NCBI GenBank assembly: GCA_000165345.1
Contig: CM000436.1
Span: 416,001-480,000, forward strand
DNA length: 64,000 nt
Reading direction: 5' to 3'
Of this stretch, positions 32,601 to 59,964 are shown piece after piece; positions within the stretch are counted from its first letter, which is position 1, and every line of letters begins with the position of its first letter. Made by a program: the position numbers and the translations under genes. The notes beneath the pieces were generated by a model. That model saw only the letters and a program-made list of their open reading frames with translations. It did not search any database and was not told where the DNA came from.

Positions 32601-33026
32601 AAACTTTATAGAGTATCCACCACTAAATATACAAGGATTATCAGTTATTTTAAATATTGACCTATATCCAATACCTTTTTCTCCTGTAAAATATCTTGAT
32701 TCTGAATTCTTTTTAGACGAATTTCCAATATCGCATACAGACTCGATATTTTCACGTGTCATCCCTTTTTCATTTATATGGAATACCAAACAATCCCATC
32801 TTAACAATATGTAAACTTGAGGGATACCCTCACCTATTTCATTAAAATTAAAGTTAGAGTCATCTGCATTCTGAAGAAGCTCCAATAATACACGTCCAAA
32901 AGATGAATAAAGTTCATTTGATAATATTCCTATTGACCTGTCTTGCCTGTCTCTTTGAGATTTATTTGAAACGAATAAGCTCTCTCTTATCTCTTGAATG
33001 TGCTTCTTTGTTTGTTCATTTTGCAT
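26664..33026 (-). CDS. Very large protein (2120 aa) with N-terminal sacsin/NOV-like GHKL (HSP90-like) ATPase domain
   Basis: N-terminal motifs RVLLELLQNADDS (N-box, cf. sacsin ELIQNADDA) and GEKGIGYRSIFKITDNP (G-box, GxGxxS). The remainder has no recognised domains. Confidence 0.55.
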   Translation of the reverse strand: MQNEQTKKHIQEIRESLFVSNKSQRDRQDRSIGILSNELYSSFGRVLLELLQNADDSNFNFNEIGEGIPQVYILLRWDCLVFHINEKGMTRENIESVCDIGNSSKKNSESRYFTGEKGIGYRSIFKITDNPCIFSGGYSIKFSSKPDEEIELSYIVPKWIEESDFPEVVKTIHSNISLYGTPWRFDNIRSEFGPKFVQSSSNLGTLHYLPFEKNMKQKFSSILSAIRNTFVHDILLFLRNIKSIVVDVEPRKDSDFCSFEKNTIYPLLRRRLTLNDLISVPDISQSLGETFNLDEFKDDSLSSIKSFRFTKIEIAQFDDDDLDLNKGKLLRESLISSKYLIVDWEIPISEDQKLESSTLRDRATRSSTVWSIALPLFHSNLRLEIDKGERIINSSSFSFGSSTFGKHKRVTGKLFCTFPLNHRIYLPFHVNIQDLILTANREDVMADNIWNSTILDVIFKKQIPQFVASMINPKLSCSRKSCLINQKYSLFMSNLLTSKSLPLQTMQESSFDYNLKPFVLNTSEFIKFSWLPPKLDNLNQCQNYCTLSSICIDELVKKPVFMNIDGSFCFLDKISTNIQFNDLCIKNNTFHEGFCIFCNLHWNFLYMLSVHMRPVLHPSLIGGHTCMHFLCTRPLQMLQVLVAQIISSYNVRNLDILKIFLELKPLKFLESISDEELLILYSYLFPQKEGDVESLKEFEGISGLPIIPTREGKRVSIEKSSIVKVYISDESFDSYFQEHCLQKYSEIIGKVCPFEFFSDRVYKIAPYRIKSMINQDFKIEKITPSIFFKLIAEQVDLLLEKGWENAINSDIQKLLLKITPLAIEEASIVEDDNRFLIKLPIVVQTYSPSFLKALLYNKDLPKSYANEEELLNKNKLARCSRMITSSLKCNRCKNETRENEVMVYPTSVALRMSQVSKSLTSLILLHSSWERSNKFSSKSYSNFDQLKTSNSNRKNVKDKTSIYNSDKSFEYKGLTIVPPLWPPLVEWVFPKVSDRFHFVEISSDYIVQNSDHLNENDKDLAFRVFTNKFINLLEQWYVGCNFDRLPPKTDASPLSWMVDRNIYPISSSHCFYCKHLIYVMRAGAIIQIANEYSRRSYNSSFLNEILSSYPWIPISLYNDNYFSYYMSQINNEQIQDCDTVDFCEDLLLSRPSELFIPKINKNLDGIIKHISQIVLNLLPVTLRNGYKIPKSRENNEPCSAHYTLNRTEEDIGNESKLISETLEEVGVTTQISSISLIRILRDYKRVMNIRDNEVVQKSRQIKLKPSYDPDLNHIIELAIFGFGITKEKLFASDWWPSLMDEWSNFDDNSLNRSLHRPSDIEMISDIYHILGHQTDFDISMNIKKVFYNESLLYIPLMKSTLYNWVPIDYNNMVWSDPYDFFHGTFIVLSKFINKSKISNLRPFFLSLVSEQPIHHHYAYLWLRECPNLLKDESKEGKIKFESFINVSINTFLKVFQKMSQSKKNSWWSEFLDNAKIPIKGIYKFLKREQCCVEDFPIGSLRSDSFQIPLAISSSPSSQFFYKDILKVKTLSECYKVTYKVNYGRNIRSHIKFANKGKNKIWLTLEFWGILILLFKHKSLDIYLSIMRILEEKKTFDSEQSLTSKNSNHSVTDCEFCVSESEILEQISNSYEFEPLSVSERYSNANEEIAYQIANWLISFVNTYEVEVDDIELKFDLNINDKHLPKTSRRKIGVLFRQIPNKNSASILLVNKSMDKSNQLKDLYTLLLDPLKGLTGLNSIINIDLYELLILSSSQRLLLLSKHVPILDDLSSKRDERFTVDNVVKEGFELLKKCSRSGCLLRKDTDIENKSLHVEKNDLLSELSIKRVDYNKADNNDPHIKVKNNNTGDYKEMTKNTDVIESNLDSIIKEYIKKNPLSLGNATDESLTIEEITKMVGFWGEKVSFEAIIPNAISRKLTLKSIDHNLIEDYLSRKFVNNYIQNEVIDMEDLKDWTGIEDMKIEDNNIFQDQQRDLFIKCKIKCFKESDTTTIKLIWLNSLNESFLPFDFILLREYFSEEEFSVSRNYKQQVLALIEVKTTKLPIWQFNISGNELLSARKAVDKFKLLIIKDAGSSEPQWALIDDVGGFIQESCTLINGVFEANFSDFCGFNSNTSGVLDNMY

Positions 33027-33554
33027 CTTATTTGGCTCCCATTATATTTTAGTAATTTCCCTATTATATTTAAGACCTATTTCAAAACTTCCAATTTTAC
33101 AGCTTATTATTTTATTTTTTTAATTAACTAATTTATAGCTAAAATATTACTACTTTATCTGATTTACTTTCCTGACAAAATTTATCTAATTATAAGAAAA
33201 TTAGTAGTTTCCACATAAAATAATATAATGCCAAATTTAAAGAAAATTTATTAAATTAAATATACAAATATATTTCCCTCCAAAATCAAGTTCAACAAAT
33301 TATTAAATTTCTCCATATTTTTTTTTCATAAACTTAATTGACTAAATACTGTACAAATCCTATTCCTTTCTTTCATAATAGCTTTATTTTTCATTCAATG
33401 TCGTCTTTCAGACTTTTATTACTATTCATGCTTTAAACCAGAAATATTCAATTAATAACAATTTACATGCAAACATTAACGTTAGAGGTTCTATTCCCAA
33501 AGGGGCAGCTTTTTTTTTAATTTAACAATAAACCTTTTAAGAAAAATCAAGGAG

Positions 33555-33576
33555 AATTTTGCATGCATGCAAAATT
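33555..33576. promoter_or_regulatory. Perfect 22-bp palindrome AATTTTGCATGCATGCAAAATT (TGCATGCA AP2-like core) upstream of the 2120-aa GHKL-protein gene
   Basis: Direct reading; the reverse complement is identical. TGCATGCA is a known over-represented apicomplexan upstream motif (ApiAP2-type). Confidence 0.55.
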
Positions 33577-33663
33577 TCAATATAAATGAGAAATAATGAA
33601 ATAAAGAAATAAAGCATTAAAGAAAAGTAGAAATTATATATGAATTAGAAAAATTGACTTGAA

Positions 33664-35091
33664 TTATATTGAAAGACTTGTTTTAAAAGATATTGTTTTG
33701 AGTTCATATGAATTTATATCTAAAAGCACCAAAGTAGGGTTATTAGAGAACTCAGGAATGGTGAAGCATAATGGTCCATTATTAGGGAATCTATATGACC
33801 CAAATTCTGATTGATTTCCTGCAAAAATGACTTGTGGAAAAGATTCATCGGTATAATCCAAAGCAAAAGGATCACGATCGAAGAATGGGTAAGTAGGTAT
33901 TACATCAGGGCATGTAGGAGCAATATTTCTTGATTCAACACAAAATTTGAGAGCATCAATAGGCTTCGAATATGAAGAAAATAGAGAAATCTTTGAAATA
34001 CATTGGCCAGAAACACCAGTTACTCTTACATTGTTAATAGAAAACAAGCAAGGATTTGTGAAAGAATTAAACGACTGATAGTTTCTTGAATTTTTGAATA
34101 TATAAGGCTGGAAAGGAGGTTGAGGAAGAGAAATTGGAACAGGATCATCCTCTCCAGGCATGATCGCAAGAGATATAGTGGAAGCCAGCTGAGAAATAAA
34201 GGAATCAACCACACCAAGCCTGCTTGAAAGCAACTCATTATTTACAACTAACTTGGTTCCAGTACCAGTAACAGTCTCTTTTGCAGTATCTAAAAGTCTA
34301 ATAATGTTTCCTGCTATAATTAAGTAAGCAATTTGTGATGATAAAAGTTTGTGTTCGCTACTATATGAAGAAACTCCCATAATGAAATCACGAAATAATT
34401 GTAAAGATAATGAATTCTCTATTTCTGATCCTATATTTAAACCGGAAACAAAAGCCAAATATACTGGCTGAGAAGACTTCCCTAATGTATATTCTTTTCC
34501 AATAATCTCTTCAGGAGGAGAGGCAAAAGTCAAATCCGAGACTAGAAAGTTGCCCCCTGAATTTTGTACTCCCCTTACTGCTAGTATGGTACCAGAAATC
34601 AAATTATTCATTGAAAATACATCTTCTTTTAGAGTCAATGGAATTCTTGATGAACTATCCTCTATATAAACCTTGTCATCATTACTAGTATAATTGCTTA
34701 ATTGACTGTTCTTTGTAGCCTCTTCGATATCTTGAAGATACTCATCCAAAATTGTTGGTCTATTTTTCATTTCCTTTGTCACAAACCCCATGATAATGCA
34801 TTCAGACTCAATTTTCATATCTTTAAGCTCATTCAAAATAGGTATCGATCTATCCTCAGGGTTACCCTGACTTGCAATCTTCTCAACTTTTTCCTGTTCT
34901 ACTGAAAGATGGCACTTCCACTTTCTCTGTACTGCTTTCAATAAAAATGGACGCAAACTCATGAACCTTGAAAAACATAAGTGGCAGTACTGGTGTGGAA
35001 AGCTGTAATCTTTTACTCTAAATCGTTCACATTCATTCTTAATATCTACTTCCGGCCGTTTCAGGCTCTTAACATCTTTTTCTAATTTCAT
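33664..35091 (-). CDS. POLD2: DNA polymerase delta small (B) subunit, POLD2/Pol31
   Basis: Phosphoesterase-domain blocks IMPGEDDP..SLPQPPF ... TNPCLFSINNVRVTGVSGQCISKI ... APTCPDVIPTYPFFDRDPFAL ... VIFAGNQSEFGS align with POLD2 (MPGEFDP..LPQQPLH ... [20 protein letters not shown] ... DPFIF ... FCGNTPSFGS). N-terminal OB region QYCHLCFSRFMSLRPFL matches QYAHIYATRLIQMRPFL. Confidence 0.85.
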   Translation of the reverse strand: MKLEKDVKSLKRPEVDIKNECERFRVKDYSFPHQYCHLCFSRFMSLRPFLLKAVQRKWKCHLSVEQEKVEKIASQGNPEDRSIPILNELKDMKIESECIIMGFVTKEMKNRPTILDEYLQDIEEATKNSQLSNYTSNDDKVYIEDSSSRIPLTLKEDVFSMNNLISGTILAVRGVQNSGGNFLVSDLTFASPPEEIIGKEYTLGKSSQPVYLAFVSGLNIGSEIENSLSLQLFRDFIMGVSSYSSEHKLLSSQIAYLIIAGNIIRLLDTAKETVTGTGTKLVVNNELLSSRLGVVDSFISQLASTISLAIMPGEDDPVPISLPQPPFQPYIFKNSRNYQSFNSFTNPCLFSINNVRVTGVSGQCISKISLFSSYSKPIDALKFCVESRNIAPTCPDVIPTYPFFDRDPFALDYTDESFPQVIFAGNQSEFGSYRFPNNGPLCFTIPEFSNNPTLVLLDINSYELKTISFKTSLSI

Positions 35092-35233
35092 TGGGAAATA
35101 CCTTGATCCTCTCTAATGCTTATAAATGAAACACACAACACCTAAGTTCTTTGCTTAATCTATTTTCCTTCTTATTTTATCGATCCCCCTTTCCCACTTT
35201 TAAAATATTCTCGACTCCCTATTAAAAAACAAT

Positions 35234-35296
35234 GGGCGGGAGCTCACTCACATTCATTACTATTACTAGTCTAAGCATGTTGGCGCCAAAACATGT
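35234..35296. promoter_or_regulatory. E2F-like cluster in the POLD2 upstream region: GGGCGGGAG and the palindromic CATGTTGGCGCCAAAACATG
   Basis: Direct reading. TTGGCGCCAA core (35280-35289) is a perfect palindrome. 140-200 bp upstream of the POLD2 start (minus strand). Confidence 0.55.
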
Positions 35297-35570
35297 ATTT
35301 CATAAACTAATAATAAATTCTTTTTGGCAACAAAAAGAATTTGTTAAGATGACATACAGATAGTTTATAAGAATTTTAACTAACTTTTATTTCTTTTCTT
35401 TCAAAATCTAATTATTTCTTTCACTATTTAACATTTAATTATTCATCTCTTGAAGTCAGAGACAAAATAACCCAATTTTTCCTCTTTTTAACAACATTCC
35501 ATTTGTCACCCTTAATTAGCACCATTTCTTTTTCTTGTTTTGTTCTAATACTCACTTTTCTTCTTTTGTG

Positions 35571-35589
35571 GGAAACTTCCCGCCAAAAC
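35571..35589. promoter_or_regulatory. E2F-like site GGAAACTTCCCGCCAAAAC between divergent POLD2 and Sld5
   Basis: Direct reading. 124 bp upstream of the predicted Sld5 ATG. Confidence 0.5.
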
Positions 35590-35712
35590 TATTTTTATTG
35601 AAATTAATCATTACTATTAAGAGTTTGATTCAAGTAGTAAAAGTAGGAAAAGTGAAAGAAAACTAAAGTAATAGGTTTGAACTTTGATAAGACTTTATAT
35701 AGACTGAAACTA

Positions 35713-35752
35713 ATGAATCATAATGAGGAGGACCGTCTTCCACTGGAAAAAG
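35713..35752 (+). CDS. SLD5: GINS subunit Sld5, predicted exon 1 (MNHNEEDRLPLEK + 1 nt), donor AAAAAG|GTAGGTTA
   Basis: ATG followed by GTAGGT donor at 35753. Needed to supply a start codon for the open exon 2. Phase 1 matches the exon-2 acceptor. Confidence 0.4.
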
Positions 35753-35931
35753 GTAGGTTAAAGGTGTAATTGACATACTAGTTTCTAAACACATGTGAGG
35801 TAACGTGTGTGTTGGCTCTAGAATTGCCAAGAGCTAATACACTTGGTACTTTAAAAAAGGCTTTGGACTGGGATATAATCTAATAATTAACTTATTTTGT
35901 TTACCTTACATTCTTTGAATCTCTAATTTAG

Positions 35932-36065
35932 AAAATTCGGGGATTAATTTAATTGATGGGAATGACTTGGAATATATTGATAATATATACAGCTCAAAGA
36001 ACTTTGGTTTATCAGATGACTCCCATATTAAGAATCTGAGAAATTCTCAAGAGACTTTGCTTATG
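35932..36065 (+). CDS. SLD5: GINS subunit Sld5, predicted exon 2 (...NLRNSQETLLM), acceptor tttag|, donor ATG|GTAAGT
   Basis: 44 stop-free codons in an AT-rich genome, bounded by a canonical acceptor (35930-31 AG) and GTAAGT donor (36066). Runs into exon 3 in frame to give ETLLM-SWINELVSPELL, matching the Sld5 N-terminal block (W.NE..aPELL). Confidence 0.6.
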
Positions 36066-36139
36066 GTAAGTTTTATTGTCCAATAATTATATCAACAAAA
36101 ATCCTAAACCACTCATTAACTTAACTTTAAATTAACAAG

Positions 36140-36826
36140 TCATGGATCAATGAGTTAGTATCTCCTGAACTATTAACATACTGTGAGTCTTCAATACAAA
36201 CTCTCTCTCACTCTATTTTCAAAGAAAAAGAAAAACAAAGAATTATGGAAGTTGATGGAGGAATTCTAGGTATCGAAGATAAAATCGAACGTGATCTAAT
36301 TAACCTCCATATTAACAGATCAACTAATATGCTCAAAATGTATCTGAAACAGAGAATAATGAAGATTTCAGAATTCCCTGATTTCTCTATTGCTAATTCA
36401 AGAACTAATAACGATCTAAACTCTGAATCAAATATCAGTCCTGAAGAAGCTATTTTCGCTTTAAAGCTTTCCAAGCTTCAATGGAAGTATTTAGATGAAA
36501 CCATCTCCAAGATGAAAAATACCCTAGCAACAGACTCCTCCGTCCCAATTCCAGCCCCATCCTTACATAGATCCGTAAGATTCAAATGCATTGACTCCAT
36601 TGGAAGAGTTCAATTACAATCTCTTGTAACCCCTGAAAATGTTTCTTTTACTCAATTTGATACTCAAAACCACTTTTCTCAAAATGATTCAGAAGGAGTC
36701 ATCAATATTGAAAAGGGAAAGATATATACATGTAAATATGAAGATGTAAGAACTCTTTTGGACCAAAATACCATCCAACTTTGGCCTTGGCCTCCCATTA
36801 CTAGCAACAAAAACTACTCTTATTAG
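36140..36826 (+). CDS. SLD5: GINS subunit Sld5, exon 3 (contains the listed ORF 36245-36826)
   Basis: SWINELVSPELLTY ... RSTNMLKMYLKQRIMKISEFPDF match Sld5 conserved blocks (WMNEKFAPELLE ... RYVLSSYLRCRLMKIEKFFP). Acceptor AG at 36138-39, in frame with the tracked ORF (35 codons upstream of its Met). Confidence 0.75.
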   Translation, partial: SWINELVSPELLTYCESSIQTLSHSIFKEKEKQRIMEVDGGILGIEDKIERDLINLHINRSTNMLKMYLKQRIMKISEFPDFSIANSRTNNDLNSESNISPEEAIFALKLSKLQWKYLDETISKMKNTLATDSSVPIPAPSLHRSVRFKCIDSIGRVQLQSLVTPENVSFTQFDTQNHFSQNDSEGVINIEKGKIYTCKYEDVRTLLDQNTIQLWPWPPITSNKNYSY

Positions 36827-37285
36827 CTATTTATTTAAAAAAAAAAAGAAAAGAAAAAAAAAAACCTCATTCTCTACCCTCCAAAAAAGCTCAAAAAAGA
36901 GCTCATATAGTCTCATTAACCATTAATATTTACCAATTCATGCTCTTCAAGCTTCCCGCCAATTATTCTATGTGTTATTACTACCTCTGTTTTGCATGTG
37001 TTTTGCCATGAGGGGTTTCGGCGCGGCCCCACAGCGCCAAACTTTGAGTAAATGCAATATGTGCCTAAAGTGTGTTGATAAAAGCCGAAATTTGAAATTA
37101 TATGTTAAACAAAGAGAATTCGTAAGTCCGAATTTATTTGCATACTCAATTATATACATATTATACGTTCTTATATTATATAATAAAAAATAAGCTTAGG
37201 ATCCTTGATATTATAGGAGAAAAAAATAGCTATATAAGGGTTAGTAAGGTCACGAGAGATCATTGATTTTGAATATTGGGAGAAA

Positions 37286-37966
37286 ATGTACAGAGAACAA
37301 TCATCAACAGTTTTGGATTCTCCTATGAATGGAGGTAGTGCTAAACTTGGAGCTTCTAGTTCATCATCTATGAGCTCAAATTTCACTAGAATGGACAGTT
37401 TTAATCGATCAGGAAGCAAAACAGGGTCAATTGCGCCAAAATCTTCAGAATATGGTCCAACAGTACAGCAGATTTTGGAAACTTATGAGAGTCTTAGATT
37501 GAAAGCTCAAGGACTTGCTAAGAGAAAATTGAGATCCTGGGATGGAGACTTCTTTTGCCTTTCATCTTTCCAAAAAGTATCACAACCAAAAGAAATTACA
37601 GATCGACTTGAAAGGAATCTTCGATACTTCTTACTAAATTATATTGTAATTATACTGGGTATGACTATGCTCTCTCTAATTTTGAATCCTATTTCTTTAA
37701 TCATTATTTTAATATCAACCTTTTCTTCAGCTTTTGTAGCATCTAGACCAACAGATATGGTAGTATTGCCAGGAGATAATGTAATTAGCAAGAAAGTGGC
37801 TTTATATGTGATAGCAGGAACATCAACTGTGATCATTCTTGTATTTTCAGGAGCTCTATTATTCACATCCTTGGCAGTATCGCTCATTCTTGTATGTATC
37901 CATGCAGTCATACACATTGGAAAGTCTAATTACGACCAGGTTGCAAACTTAGAGAGCGAAGTATAA
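37286..37966 (+). CDS. PRA1: Prenylated Rab acceptor PRA1/Yip3 family protein
   Basis: LRSWDGDFFCLSSFQKVSQPKEITDRLERNLRYFLLNYIVIIL followed by two long hydrophobic hairpin segments. Matches the PRA1 signature (R.W.eF.....kP.s..ea..Ri..Nl.YF..NY). Confidence 0.7.
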   Translation: MYREQSSTVLDSPMNGGSAKLGASSSSSMSSNFTRMDSFNRSGSKTGSIAPKSSEYGPTVQQILETYESLRLKAQGLAKRKLRSWDGDFFCLSSFQKVSQPKEITDRLERNLRYFLLNYIVIILGMTMLSLILNPISLIIILISTFSSAFVASRPTDMVVLPGDNVISKKVALYVIAGTSTVIILVFSGALLFTSLAVSLILVCIHAVIHIGKSNYDQVANLESEV

Positions 37967-38109
37967 TACCTAGAAGTTAATTACAATGAAAATAGATCCA
38001 GCTATAAAGATTAGAAACTAAAAAGATTCACAAAGTTTTAGTACTTAATAGATTAAATTATATATATCATCTAAATATAGTCTTTACACTTATCAGTACC
38101 TGCTTATAA

Positions 38110-38751
38110 TTAGAGCTTCTCCTGAACTCTTTTAGAGACTATTCTAAGGTGGTTGTAGACTTTTCCAGGAGGAGTTCCCAAAATTAAACTACATAGAGCA
38201 TCTCTTGCTAATTTAATATTATGAAAGGCTCCCATTAAATGGAGTTTCTGACCAGCTAAGACAATCCTAGTTCTGGTTGAATTTTCTATAGCATACTTTG
38301 TTTTACCATCCCTACCAGAAATACGACCAATACAACGTGACAAATGTGCTCCATTCAATCTTTTTACGTCTTTAATTTCAAAGCTTTCTATATAAAGATC
38401 ATCCAATCTCAAAAGAGCAATGGCATCTTGAAGCTCAAATCCAAGTAGAAAAGCCTTAATAAAGTCAACTCCTTTTTGAAGAGATCCAATATCAGTGCAA
38501 TCTGGCCCATATTTAAGCTCTACACATCTTCTCTTTGTATTCATTCTTACATGTAATCCCATATGTTCTACCAAAGGAGTAACAATATTAATCCATTGGT
38601 TCTTTAAAGGAGTCATTCTATTTTCAGGAACCATCACTCTTCTTATTTCATTACTTCTGTTAACTTCTGTTCCAGTTAAAGGCTTAAAAGGTCCTTCAGT
38701 CCGTCTCTCCTCCTCAACCATATCCATATCCATACTCTTTGTTTCTCCCAT
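38110..38751 (-). CDS. PNO1: KH-domain pre-40S ribosome biogenesis factor Pno1/Dim2
   Basis: Near full-length alignment to Pno1: MTPLKNQWINIVTPLVEHMGL ... GSLQKGVDFIKAFLLGFELQDAIALLRLDDLYIESFEIKDVKRLNGAHLSRCIGRISGRDGKTKYAIENSTRTRIVLAGQKLHLMGAFHNIKLARDALCSLILGTPPGKVYNHLR. Confidence 0.85.
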   Translation of the reverse strand: MGETKSMDMDMVEEERRTEGPFKPLTGTEVNRSNEIRRVMVPENRMTPLKNQWINIVTPLVEHMGLHVRMNTKRRCVELKYGPDCTDIGSLQKGVDFIKAFLLGFELQDAIALLRLDDLYIESFEIKDVKRLNGAHLSRCIGRISGRDGKTKYAIENSTRTRIVLAGQKLHLMGAFHNIKLARDALCSLILGTPPGKVYNHLRIVSKRVQEKL

Positions 38752-39308
38752 ATGTAATAAACCTAAAGAAATATACTTCTAAGATATCCAATTCTTCTTT
38801 TCCCTACAAAAATCTACTCTGGAAAAATCTTAATAATCTCCTCCTTAATTATTCTTCTTCGCTGCTTAACTCTATTTTATACCGTCAAAATTAACCATTG
38901 GGTGTGCCCGCCTAAAAGTTGGCGCCGAAGGCTTAAAAATGGGTTTTTGGAGGGGAAAGTCATCTTAAGAATAAAAGAAAGAGGAAGATGTGGAATATAT
39001 TTTATTAGAAGAAAAAGTGTTGAAATGTAATGAGAGTGCTTTAAAAGATATAGGTGTGAAAATCGGACTACATTCATGTGAGGTTAAATCTGTTACTTGG
39101 AATGTAATGTTATTTAGTGTTAATAATAGAGGTAATTTATATGAATTACTATTATAACATAAAATTTATATGGATTAAAATAAGATTAAAAGGAGAAGAA
39201 TTAGTAAGAAACAATATTCTTAGAAATAAATAAGAACTTTAGAAGCTTAAAAAAGCAAAATAACAAAATCTGTGCAACAGTAATAGCTTTAACTAAGGTT
39301 TTTAATCA

Positions 39309-40523
39309 ATGATGATTACAAAAGGAGGAGATTACTCAGAATATTCAGAAATACATACACAGGATATTGAGAAATCTAAAGATTATGACCAAGAATGTGT
39401 AGAATTAAGGAAAAGTGTGAGAGAATATCTCGAAAAAGAAAGCAAAATAAACTTATACTTTTCAGAAAAGAAGAGTTATTTGATAAACAAAGAATTTGTA
39501 GATATTCAGGTCCAATTAAACTCACAACTTTGCCCAAAAGTTAAACTTTGGAAACGAATTGAAGAACCAAACTCAAAAGAATTCTCCAAATTAAAAAATA
39601 ACCCAACTCAACATCTTTTTGCAATTAAAATCTATTCAAAACCCCAACTCATTCGGAGAAACATTGTCTATTCTTCAGACAGGAAAATCAGGACCCAAAT
39701 GCATCGTGTAATTAACGAAATCAAGATTCTACAATTCCTTGCAAAAACCGATCCCACATACTACTATATTGCTAAATTACACAAAGTTCTTGAATCTTTT
39801 CCTTCTACCTTATCTTCCGGAAAATTGTATCTCATCTTTGACTTTTTTCCGATTGGACCCACAATGGCGCCCGACACAGGGGCAAGGCGCGCGCGCGCGT
39901 GCCCGGGGTTTGAAAAGAATCTTTTAGTGTATACTCCAAGTCCTGCATTAGAGAGGACAGAGGTAAGTATAAGGAGAATGGCTTACTGTATTGGAGTAGC
40001 TCTATCTAGACTTCATGAGTTAGGGATTGTTCATAGAGATGTAAAACCTGATAATATTATGCTTACACATACTGGAGATGCATTTTTGAATGACTTTAAT
40101 TCTGCAGAATTTTTAATTCAAGGTAAATATGTTCAGGGCACTGAAGGAACATATGCATTTTTTCCTCCTGAGCATTGTAATATAAACAACAATAGCAATA
40201 AAATTGTTACTGAAAGGAACGAATCATCCGAAATCAATGAACAAGAAGAATGTTCCCAATCTACGCTCCAATTGGGATGTCCAGCAGATATGTGGGCTCT
40301 TGGAGTCACAATTTGGTGTTGGTTTTATGGTACACTACCTTTTCAAGGAAATAGTATTTTAGAGCTTTTTGACAATATTACAAAATGTAAGATTGAGTTC
40401 CCTAGACAGCCTACTTTATCAAATGAGTGTATTAATGCCATTTTGCATCTTTTAGACCCAGAACCGAATTCCCGTTGGACTGCTCGTCAGTTTCTTGAGT
40501 CCGACTGGTTTTCTAAAAACTAA
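39309..40523 (+). CDS. Divergent Ser/Thr protein kinase with a GC-rich insertion in the catalytic domain
   Basis: Kinase subdomains FAIKIYSK (VAIK), EIKILQFL (alpha-C Glu), LYLIFDFFPIG (hinge), IVHRDVKPDNIML (catalytic loop), DFN instead of DFG, GTEGTYAFFPPE (APE-like), DMWALGVTIWCWFYGTLPF. Confidence 0.75.
   Translation: MMITKGGDYSEYSEIHTQDIEKSKDYDQECVELRKSVREYLEKESKINLYFSEKKSYLINKEFVDIQVQLNSQLCPKVKLWKRIEEPNSKEFSKLKNNPTQHLFAIKIYSKPQLIRRNIVYSSDRKIRTQMHRVINEIKILQFLAKTDPTYYYIAKLHKVLESFPSTLSSGKLYLIFDFFPIGPTMAPDTGARRARACPGFEKNLLVYTPSPALERTEVSIRRMAYCIGVALSRLHELGIVHRDVKPDNIMLTHTGDAFLNDFNSAEFLIQGKYVQGTEGTYAFFPPEHCNINNNSNKIVTERNESSEINEQEECSQSTLQLGCPADMWALGVTIWCWFYGTLPFQGNSILELFDNITKCKIEFPRQPTLSNECINAILHLLDPEPNSRWTARQFLESDWFSKN
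39866..39915 (+). repeat. GC-rich island with an alternating (CG)6 tract (GGCGCCCGACACAGGGGCAAGGCGCGCGCGCGCGTGCCCGGGG) inside the kinase CDS
   Basis: About 80% GC over roughly 50 nt in a genome of about 30% GC. Encodes an in-frame insertion (MAPDTGARRARACPGF) between hinge and catalytic loop. Confidence 0.8.
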
Positions 40524-58815: not shown

Positions 58816-59911
58816 TTGCAAAAATGCAGTATCGTCTGTGAGGATATTTTATCCAAAAGATATTGTGAATTAGGAAATAGGTATTTAAGGTTAGATTGGT
58901 TAGTTTTATTAATTTTTGAGAAGGAAACAAGGATGAATTTCCCTTACTTTTTCTGGATTATATTTTCAATATTGATTTGCAAAGTTAGATTAGAGGTTGT
59001 CATAGAGAATGAAGACCCAAAAGCGGATATGAGTGCACTGGAACATTTAGATTCAAGCTTCATGCAAGACAGAGGGAGTGTGGGGATTGAGAATTTGAGT
59101 TCTAATATTGATTTATCTGCAGGTTTTGCAGATAATGAAGCACAGGATAATTCGAATTTAAGCATGGATAAACCAATTGAGGGGATTGATAATGAGAAGT
59201 TTTCTATCGAAGGTTTGGATACAAATGATGGTTTTGAAGAAGTAAAAGATTCAAGTTTCCAAAATCAGCTTGATATTGAGGAAAATAAAAATAGTGATCA
59301 TTCAGTAGGAAATGGTATATATTCAGAAGATAGTATTTTGAATGGAAGCTTTGAGAGTAAGTCAGTTGATTTGAACGATGTAGATAAAGTTTCAGCAGAA
59401 AACAATTTAAATGATAAATTTGAAAATTTGAGCTTTTCAGATAAAAGTGTTGGAGGTTTTGATGAGCAGGGCAAAAATAATGATTTTCCTGAAATAGAAG
59501 AGAACCAGAAAGATTTTTCCAGCGTTGGAAAAGATTTTTCATTAGCAAATAAAGAATCAGGTGAAGAAAATTTACCCGGGGAATACACCTCAACAACAGT
59601 AGTGGAAAGAATGGACTCAGATCAACAAGATTCTCGGTCTAGCATGTTTCGAGAAAGCACTCTTCCAACTCCGCCTCCACAAACAACTGAATCCACAGAA
59701 GTGACTGGTGGTGGTGGTGGTGGGGGAAATGGCAATGGAGGAGGATTCCCAAACACTTCAACATCTGTACCAACAGAAACAACAACAGGTTCCGGAGGTA
59801 GTGGAGGGGGTAGTGGAGGAGGTAGTGGAGGAGGTAATGGAGGAGGTAGTGGAGGAGGTAATGGAGGAGGTAGTGGAGGCAGTGGAGGCGATGGCGATCA
59901 AAACCAAGTGG
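58816..59911 (+). CDS. Mucin-like type-I membrane glycoprotein, exon 1 (signal peptide most likely from the Met at 58933; acidic S/N-rich ectodomain; Thr/Pro then Gly/Ser-rich stalk)
   Basis: MNFPYFFWIIFSILICKVRLE signal-like segment. Ectodomain ends TLPTPPPQTTESTEVTGGGGGGGNGNGG ... TSTSVPTETTTGSGGSGGGSGGG ..., a mucin-like O-glycosylation stalk. Donor G|GTAGGTTA at 59912 (the same GTAGGTTA donor as Sld5 exon 1). Confidence 0.6.
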
Positions 59912-59964
59912 GTAGGTTAAATTTTTATGATATTCTATACGAACTCTGACTTTTATTTTTTTAG

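Follow-up and report, generated by a model that had tools for sequence, protein, structure and literature searches.

The stretch of DNA analysed here, which is 64,000 nucleotides long and is called the window below, comes from chromosome 8 of Cryptosporidium parvum and has a G+C content of 32%; its part from 32713 to 39826 (7,114 nt) is identical to CP141125.1:440552-447665 of the assembly GCA_035232765.1. The gene treated in the following is predicted to encode Sld5, a subunit of the GINS complex. It shares a divergent intergenic region of 621 nt with the gene for DNA polymerase subunit B, and genes for PRA1, PNO1 and a protein kinase follow on its downstream side (Table 1). Its locus name is presumably cgd8_1630, because the locus tags CPHLJ_8g1630 and CHM_8g1630 are in use. 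As to the neighbour, two C. parvum assemblies annotate the 3′ end of the polymerase gene differently, giving 475 versus 471 residues (952-2379 of piece L001 versus 967-2379 of piece L002), and the ORF found in the window has 475 aa.

Table 1. Positions, in window coordinates, of the predicted Sld5 gene, its neighbour, the E2F-like motif and an intron with the same donor in a second gene
Feature	Position	Strand	Remarks
DNA polymerase subunit B gene	33664-35091	minus	upstream neighbour of Sld5, divergent
E2F-like promoter motif TTCCCGCC	35577-35584	.	136 nt 5′ of the Sld5 ATG, in the divergent intergenic region
Other copies of TTCCCGCC	36953-36960; 2465, 6339, 11246, 15413, 26633, 26643		from a count over the window
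Sld5 exon 1	35713-35752	+	40 nt; MNHNEEDRLPLEK and the first base of codon 14; phase-1 end
Sld5 intron 1	35753-35931	+	179 nt, phase 1; GTAGGTTA...TTTAG; stops in all three frames
Sld5 exon 2	35932-36065	+	134 nt; ENSGINLIDGNDLEYIDNIYSSKNFGLSDDSHIKNLRNSQETLLM; ends ...CTTATG/GTAAGT
Sld5 intron 2	36066-36139	+	74 nt, phase 0; GTAAGT...ACAAG; stops in all frames
Sld5 exon 3	36140-36826	+	687 nt including the TAG stop at 36824-36826; residues 59-286; starts SWINELVSPELL
193-aa ORF	36245-36826	+	internal Met 94 to stop; from the ORF list
Intron of the second gene	59912-59964		53 nt, phase 1, plausible; starts with GTAGGTTA

How much of this gene can be seen by a mechanical search for open reading frames? 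At the usual length cut-offs, the ORF list holds from Sld5 the 193-aa ORF alone, just as had been said when the ORF track was described as showing the last exon only. Upstream of the ATG of this ORF, the same frame stays open for another 35 codons (105 nt) back to 36140, where it reads SWINELVSPELLTY, and these open codons, which the original prediction had traced to the acceptor AG at 36138-36139, are indeed in frame with the listed ORF. The frame of exon 3 is shut by a TAA at 36128-36130, and a single AG, that at 36138-36139, stands between this TAA and the codons for SWINE, so that the acceptor reads ...AATTAACAAG/TCATGG at 36139/36140 (here and below the slash marks an exon-intron junction). 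The frame of exon 2 is closed in its turn by a TGA five codons 5′ of its acceptor (...CTCTAATTTAG/AAAA at 35931/35932, with the AG at 35930-35931). The sole ATG in exon 2 is its last codon; therefore an upstream exon is required. It is to be noted that the ATG at 35713 is the first in-frame ATG after a stop and at the same time the start of the deposited gene range. From this ATG, exon 1 runs to ...GAAAAAG/GTAGGTTA at 35752/35753, and the one at 35753 is the only one of the four GT dinucleotides before the next in-frame stop that has the required phase. Since stops bound each open stretch, there is one phase-compatible donor and one acceptor for each intron. Both introns are of the GT-AG type with a GTRAGT-like donor (GTAGGT...TTTAG and GTAAGT...ACAAG), and the spliced coding sequence of 861 nt gives 286 aa and a stop. 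Thus, all the exon coordinates and both intron lengths listed in Table 1, which had been proposed from the sequence beforehand, are present in the window.

Upstream of both acceptors there are TTAAC/CTAAY-like sequences, candidate branch-point regions that are kept among close species. In the case of intron 2, CCACTCATTAAC (36108-36120, 20-30 nt 5′ of the acceptor) is common to C. parvum, to Cryptosporidium chipmunk genotype I and to the distant C. andersoni, and may be an extended branch-point region.

The conceptual product of 286 aa is an exact look-up match to four C. parvum entries, QOY39917.1, WKS79414.1, WRK33914.1 and KAL5366895.1, which bear the names "GINS complex subunit Sld5" or "DNA replication complex GINS protein SLD5". 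The gene as deposited is exactly as long as 35713-36826 (1,114 nt), and an exhaustive search of GT-AG combinations left a single splice solution that gives the deposited protein, the same one as in the original prediction. In a comparison with the deposited C. parvum Sld5 (CPHLJ_8g1630), the 286-aa sequence, the gene span and the exon/intron boundaries are all identical, and no difference was found. The three-exon gene model is therefore already public, and our analysis is a re-derivation and not a discovery. It carries little biological weight, since GenBank already contains the correct model with three exons for C. parvum, C. hominis, C. tyzzeri, C. meleagridis and others. Its value is rather one of calibration: an exact eukaryotic gene model was recoverable from the raw sequence by a first-stage reader, and an ORF track of the bacterial style under-reports spliced genes in the C. 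parvum genome.

Was the gene always annotated in this manner? The same 90% cluster holds 286-aa models of C. hominis, C. tyzzeri and C. meleagridis together with two shorter ones, namely XP_666889.1 of C. hominis TU502, whose 193 aa equal the length of the ORF in the ORF track, and XP_627070.1 of C. parvum Iowa II, partial, whose 231 aa correspond in length to the frame that stays open as far back as 36128, where a stop closes it. Both of these are of the single-exon type, and a gene consisting only of the 193-aa ORF at 36245-36826 or of the 231-aa open stretch, without any splicing, is what the annotations of 2004 proposed; such a gene would also agree with the fact that about 90% of C. parvum genes have no intron (PMC4637869). 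A single-exon product, however, lacks the invariant WINE.VSPELL block, which aligns with residues 33-44 of human SLD5, and the 193-aa ORF alone would be devoid of the first helices of the A domain. Moreover, the 35 codons 5′ of the internal Met are open and conserved, with no ATG among them as far back as the stop at 36128-36130, and the 193- and 231-aa models were replaced by the 286-aa model in the later annotations of all four species, C. parvum, C. hominis, C. tyzzeri and C. meleagridis. An unspliced gene is accordingly next to impossible in our judgement.

The literature on splicing in this parasite gives a background to this change of models. With the work of Isaza et al. (2015), the proportion of C. 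parvum genes that contain introns rose from 4.3% to 10.8% (PMC4637869), and the introns have a mean length of 99 nt and a G+C content of 22% (PMC4637869). Like those of other intron-containing C. parvum genes (PMC4637869), the Sld5 introns are short, AT-rich (23-32% G+C) and provided with GTAAGT-like donors, and their sizes of 74 and 179 nt are within the ordinary range of the species. A re-annotation of C. parvum IOWA-ATCC, C. hominis 30976 and C. tyzzeri was published by Baptista et al. (2022; PMC8744675), who stated for the IOWA-ATCC genome as a whole that introns are 100% supported by RNA-seq (PMC8744675). Because the product name is common to exactly these three species, the entries suggest that the 286-aa model comes from this annotation. 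A full-text search for 'cgd8_1630' found no paper with this name in its main text; in the supplement of PMC4637869 the gene appears as a dN/dS row only, with an identity of 0.99 to C. hominis and an omega of 0.079.

If the three-exon architecture is real, it is expected to be seen in other species of the genus. Orthologous DNA was compared from C. meleagridis, chipmunk genotype I, C. ubiquitum, C. felis, C. bovis, C. andersoni and C. ryanae, and the exon structure was solved for each species so as to reproduce its deposited protein; several of the annotated models are not independent and may have been copied from one species to the next. In six of these seven annotated species, all but C. ryanae, there are three exons and introns of phases 1 and 0 at homologous positions. 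Exon 1 in the six species is 31-43 nt long, always 1 mod 3, and exons 1 and 2 together are 150-174 nt long, always 0 mod 3, while the introns (65-247 nt for intron 1 and 71-103 nt for intron 2) show no multiple-of-three constraint. When all the sequences are taken together, the three-exon layout with the same intron positions and phases is found in nine other Cryptosporidium sequences; phases are 1 and 0 in every sequence that contains the junction, with intron 1 of 65-247 nt and intron 2 of 54-103 nt. The donor of intron 2 is GTAAGT in 10 of 10 sequences. As for intron 1, exon 1 is included in nine sequences; eight of them keep the ATG, phase 1 and the AAAG/GT junction, and in the other one, from C. 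andersoni, the ATG and the phase are kept and the junction is GAAG/GTTTGT. The fourth position of this donor is G (GTAGGT) in C. parvum, C. meleagridis and C. ryanae, and A in most other species.

C. ryanae and two contigs from Logan, L010 and L011, deserve separate attention, since the upstream exons have never been annotated there and these sequences thus provide independent evidence. The C. ryanae DNA reads ATG...GAGAAAG/GTAGGTTC, then ...CTTAG/AAAAC...TTCTCA/GTAAGT, and then ...TGTTAG/GGATGGATAAATGAA. On its contig VHLK02000046.1 (piece L008), exon 1 lies at 1070-1106 and exon 2 at 1298-1431, both with good splice sites, and joining them to exon 3 leads to a product of 317 aa. Judging from this reconstruction, FG386_002710, the single-exon model of 255 aa deposited for C. 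ryanae, is truncated, with exons 1 and 2 missing; this is a minor by-product of practical use. Contig L011, for which there are ORF calls only, shows three exons at 886-931, 1152-1285 and 1381-2064, and contig L010, likewise with ORF calls only, contains exon 2, intron 2 and exon 3. The three-exon pattern is far more than what chance would give. Conservation of intron position and phase across the genus, together with the reproduction of the deposited protein and of its gene span, bears out the three-exon model as it had been put forward.

The three exons differ in how they diverge. Between C. parvum and chipmunk genotype I, 77 of the 106 differences in exon 3 fall on the third codon position, and a weaker bias is seen in exon 2 (9 of 16). 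Exon 1 by itself gives little sign of being coding: its differences at the first, second and third codon positions number 5, 3 and 3, and 7 of its 13 residues are changed. As there is no third-position bias, the extreme N-terminus is a fast-evolving tail. Then, can translation start downstream of it? Exon 2 ends with an ATG (36063-36065) which is in frame and immediately 5′ of a perfect GTAAGT donor, and the original prediction itself had cautioned that a start there could take the place of exon 1, which would leave a gene of two coding exons with exon 1 and most of exon 2 being 5′ UTR or untranscribed. The rapid change of exon 1 fits such a gene, as does the fact that residues 1-53 have no counterpart in the alignment with human SLD5. 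This codon is, however, GTG in C. meleagridis, ACG in chipmunk genotype I, and TCA in C. felis and C. bovis, as it is in the reconstruction of C. ryanae, and because it is not conserved the ATG is ruled out as the start. The exon 2 peptide before it (..DLEYIDNIYSSKNFG..) is open and conserved in 10 of 10 sequences with indels in multiples of three only, and the alignment with human SLD5 begins five residues 5′ of this Met. With the codon unconserved and the peptide upstream of it conserved, the caution can be dropped, and a start at the end of exon 2 is scarcely credible.

Another way to depart from the three-exon gene is to accept exons 2 and 3 and to suppose that the first exon is a different one that has escaped recognition, or that 5′ exons are used alternatively. 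It is true that exon 1, a short one of 13 codons under weak constraint, leaves room for this idea. Against it, the ATG, the phase-1 end, the ..GAAAAAG/GTRRGT donor and the AG/AAAA acceptor, which together encode E-K-E-N over the junction, are kept in eight of the nine sequences with exon 1, just one GT of four before the in-frame stop (that at 35753) has the required phase, and a conserved E2F-like motif stands about 136 nt 5′ of the ATG at 35713. A different first exon is thus most improbable in our view, and exon 1 as predicted appears to be supported by its conserved ATG, phase, donor and E-K/E-N junction, along with the fact that exon 2 requires a start codon from elsewhere.

To which protein family does the product belong? 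Sld5 is one of the four GINS subunits, and GINS forms together with Cdc45 and Mcm2-7 the replicative CMG helicase. The A domain precedes the B domain in Sld5 and Psf1, and this order is reversed in Psf2 and Psf3. A profile made of eight orthologues was searched against all PDB chains with E-values up to 1, and all 10 matches were SLD5 chains, headed by human 2e9x_D (E = 1.1e-10) and followed by those of frog, fly, yeast and worm; no chain of Psf1, Psf2 or Psf3 was listed in this search. Comparison of the 286-aa product with Sld5 orthologues, which had been recommended as a check, therefore turned out in favour of the assignment. The alignment extends over profile positions 54-272 and residues 28-222 of the 223 residues of human SLD5, and no gap interrupts it at the junction of exons 2 and 3, ETLLM/SWINELVSPELL being paired with ERLEQ AWMNEKFAPELL, so that the final five residues of exon 2 align with human residues 28-32 and exon 3 with 33-222. 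Within this region a W-x-N-E-x-x-[AS]-P-E-L-L motif is found: SWINELVSPELL (residues 59-70), whose human counterpart is AWMNEKFAPELL, is invariant at 10 of 12 positions among eight species.

In a Pfam search with the single sequence, Sld5 (PF05916) was matched at residues 116-177 with 16.1 bits, under the cut-off of 22.3, and SLD5_C (PF16922) at residues 241-272 with 19.8 bits, under the cut-off of 27. They are the top two families and come in the right order, both below the curated cut-offs, and the low scores are a matter of sequence divergence and not a contrary result. An AlphaFold model, of low confidence with a mean pLDDT of 54, has helices in residues 24-187 and then strands in 203-272. 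Foldseek placed nine SLD5 chains of the PDB first and PSF1 chains next, with TM-scores of 0.3-0.48; owing to the low confidence of the prediction (pLDDT 54), this fold search served as a ranking check only. Since the profile search, the ranking of folds and the established domain order of GINS subunits all point in the same direction, we infer that the 286-aa protein is the Sld5 subunit of Cryptosporidium.

Compared with SLD5 of human and yeast (GINS4; 2e9x_D, 2q9q, 6xtx and 3jc5_D), the C. parvum protein shows profile homology over nearly the whole human chain, and shares with them the N-terminal block W(I/M)NE..(S/A)PELL and a helical A domain followed by a small beta B domain, with about 20% identity in the Foldseek alignments. 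It differs from them at both ends. Its N-terminal tail (about 53 residues) bears no sequence relationship to human SLD5, and at the C-terminus the Cryptosporidium protein continues with QLWPWPP and a few residues past the human end (..VQLI). The QLWPWPP motif is invariant in the genus and is followed by a short variable tail (residues 271-286, window positions 36782-36826).

Taking these results together, we hold it as very probable that the locus is the three-exon Sld5 gene of C. parvum, with introns of 179 nt (phase 1) and 74 nt (phase 0) and a product of 286 aa. The exons at 35713-35752, 35932-36065 and 36140-36826 would be joined after removal of two ordinary GT-AG spliceosomal introns. 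Exons 1 and 2 would encode the N-terminal tail, which evolves fast, and the beginning of the A domain's first conserved helix, and exon 3 the remaining A domain and a small, beta-rich B domain at the C-terminus; an ORF finder sees only the part of exon 3 that lies 3′ of the internal Met. With gene structure and family read directly from the data, the splicing itself and the biochemical role of the product would follow from conservation, from the literature and from the established knowledge of GINS, and by homology C. parvum Sld5 is expected to enter the GINS tetramer and to take part in CMG assembly.

Besides the coding parts, some sequences in and around the gene are conserved as well. The 5′ part of intron 1 (35790-35845; ATGTGAGGTAAYGTGTGTGTTGGCTC...) is well conserved among C. 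parvum, C. meleagridis, chipmunk genotype I and C. ubiquitum. In C. parvum this part forms a hairpin of 13 bp, and folding of intron 1 gave a z of -1.9, with 5 of 200 shuffled sequences folding as well. A scan of 35500-36300 with Rfam at permissive E-values gave nothing credible, the best matches being far under the gathering scores. In chipmunk genotype I, a deletion of 46 nt in intron 1 removes most of the 3′ arm of the hairpin, and a functional intron 1 RNA was set aside, as the hairpin is not retained there. The conservation of this 5′ part is probably neutral, being observed among close relatives. It might still be imagined that 35790-35845 has a function in the C. parvum group, as a regulatory element or as a small RNA, and that the QLWPWPP tail is a lineage-specific replisome contact in Cryptosporidium, and we regard these two ideas as quite unlikely.

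Another element is the E2F-like motif TTCCCGCC, of which the window contains 8 copies versus 0.26 expected. Upstream of Sld5 it is found at -135 to -137 in C. parvum, C. meleagridis, chipmunk genotype I and C. ubiquitum, at -115 in C. felis and at -230 in C. ryanae. E2F-like motifs are over-represented upstream of C. parvum genes, replication genes included (PMC3734150), and the copy in the divergent intergenic region may well have a regulatory role. The copy at 36953-36960, which is 3′ of the Sld5 stop and 5′ of PRA1, is kept in C. parvum, C. meleagridis, chipmunk genotype I and C. ubiquitum, and C. ryanae has a further copy inside the coding region (+873).

The donor of Sld5 intron 1 seems to be used a second time in the window. 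GGTAGGTTA occurs twice (at 35752 and at 59911-59919) versus 0.29 expected, and the second occurrence belongs to a gene at 58933-60461 for a predicted secreted or membrane protein with a high content of Gly, Ser and Thr, a signal peptide and GGSGGG repeats. Its predicted intron at 59912-59964 links the ORF for the signal peptide and the Gly/Thr-rich region to one transmembrane segment and a basic tail. The 491-aa conceptual product of 58933-60461 has no exact match in the protein collection; because it is absent there, the deposited C. parvum model may differ in its start or in other details. The junction at 59912-59964 is aligned without a gap by the C. ubiquitum orthologue cubi_03403, and the claim that a mucin-like gene uses the same GTAGGTTA donor at 59912 is consistent with both this orthologue and the sequence of the window.
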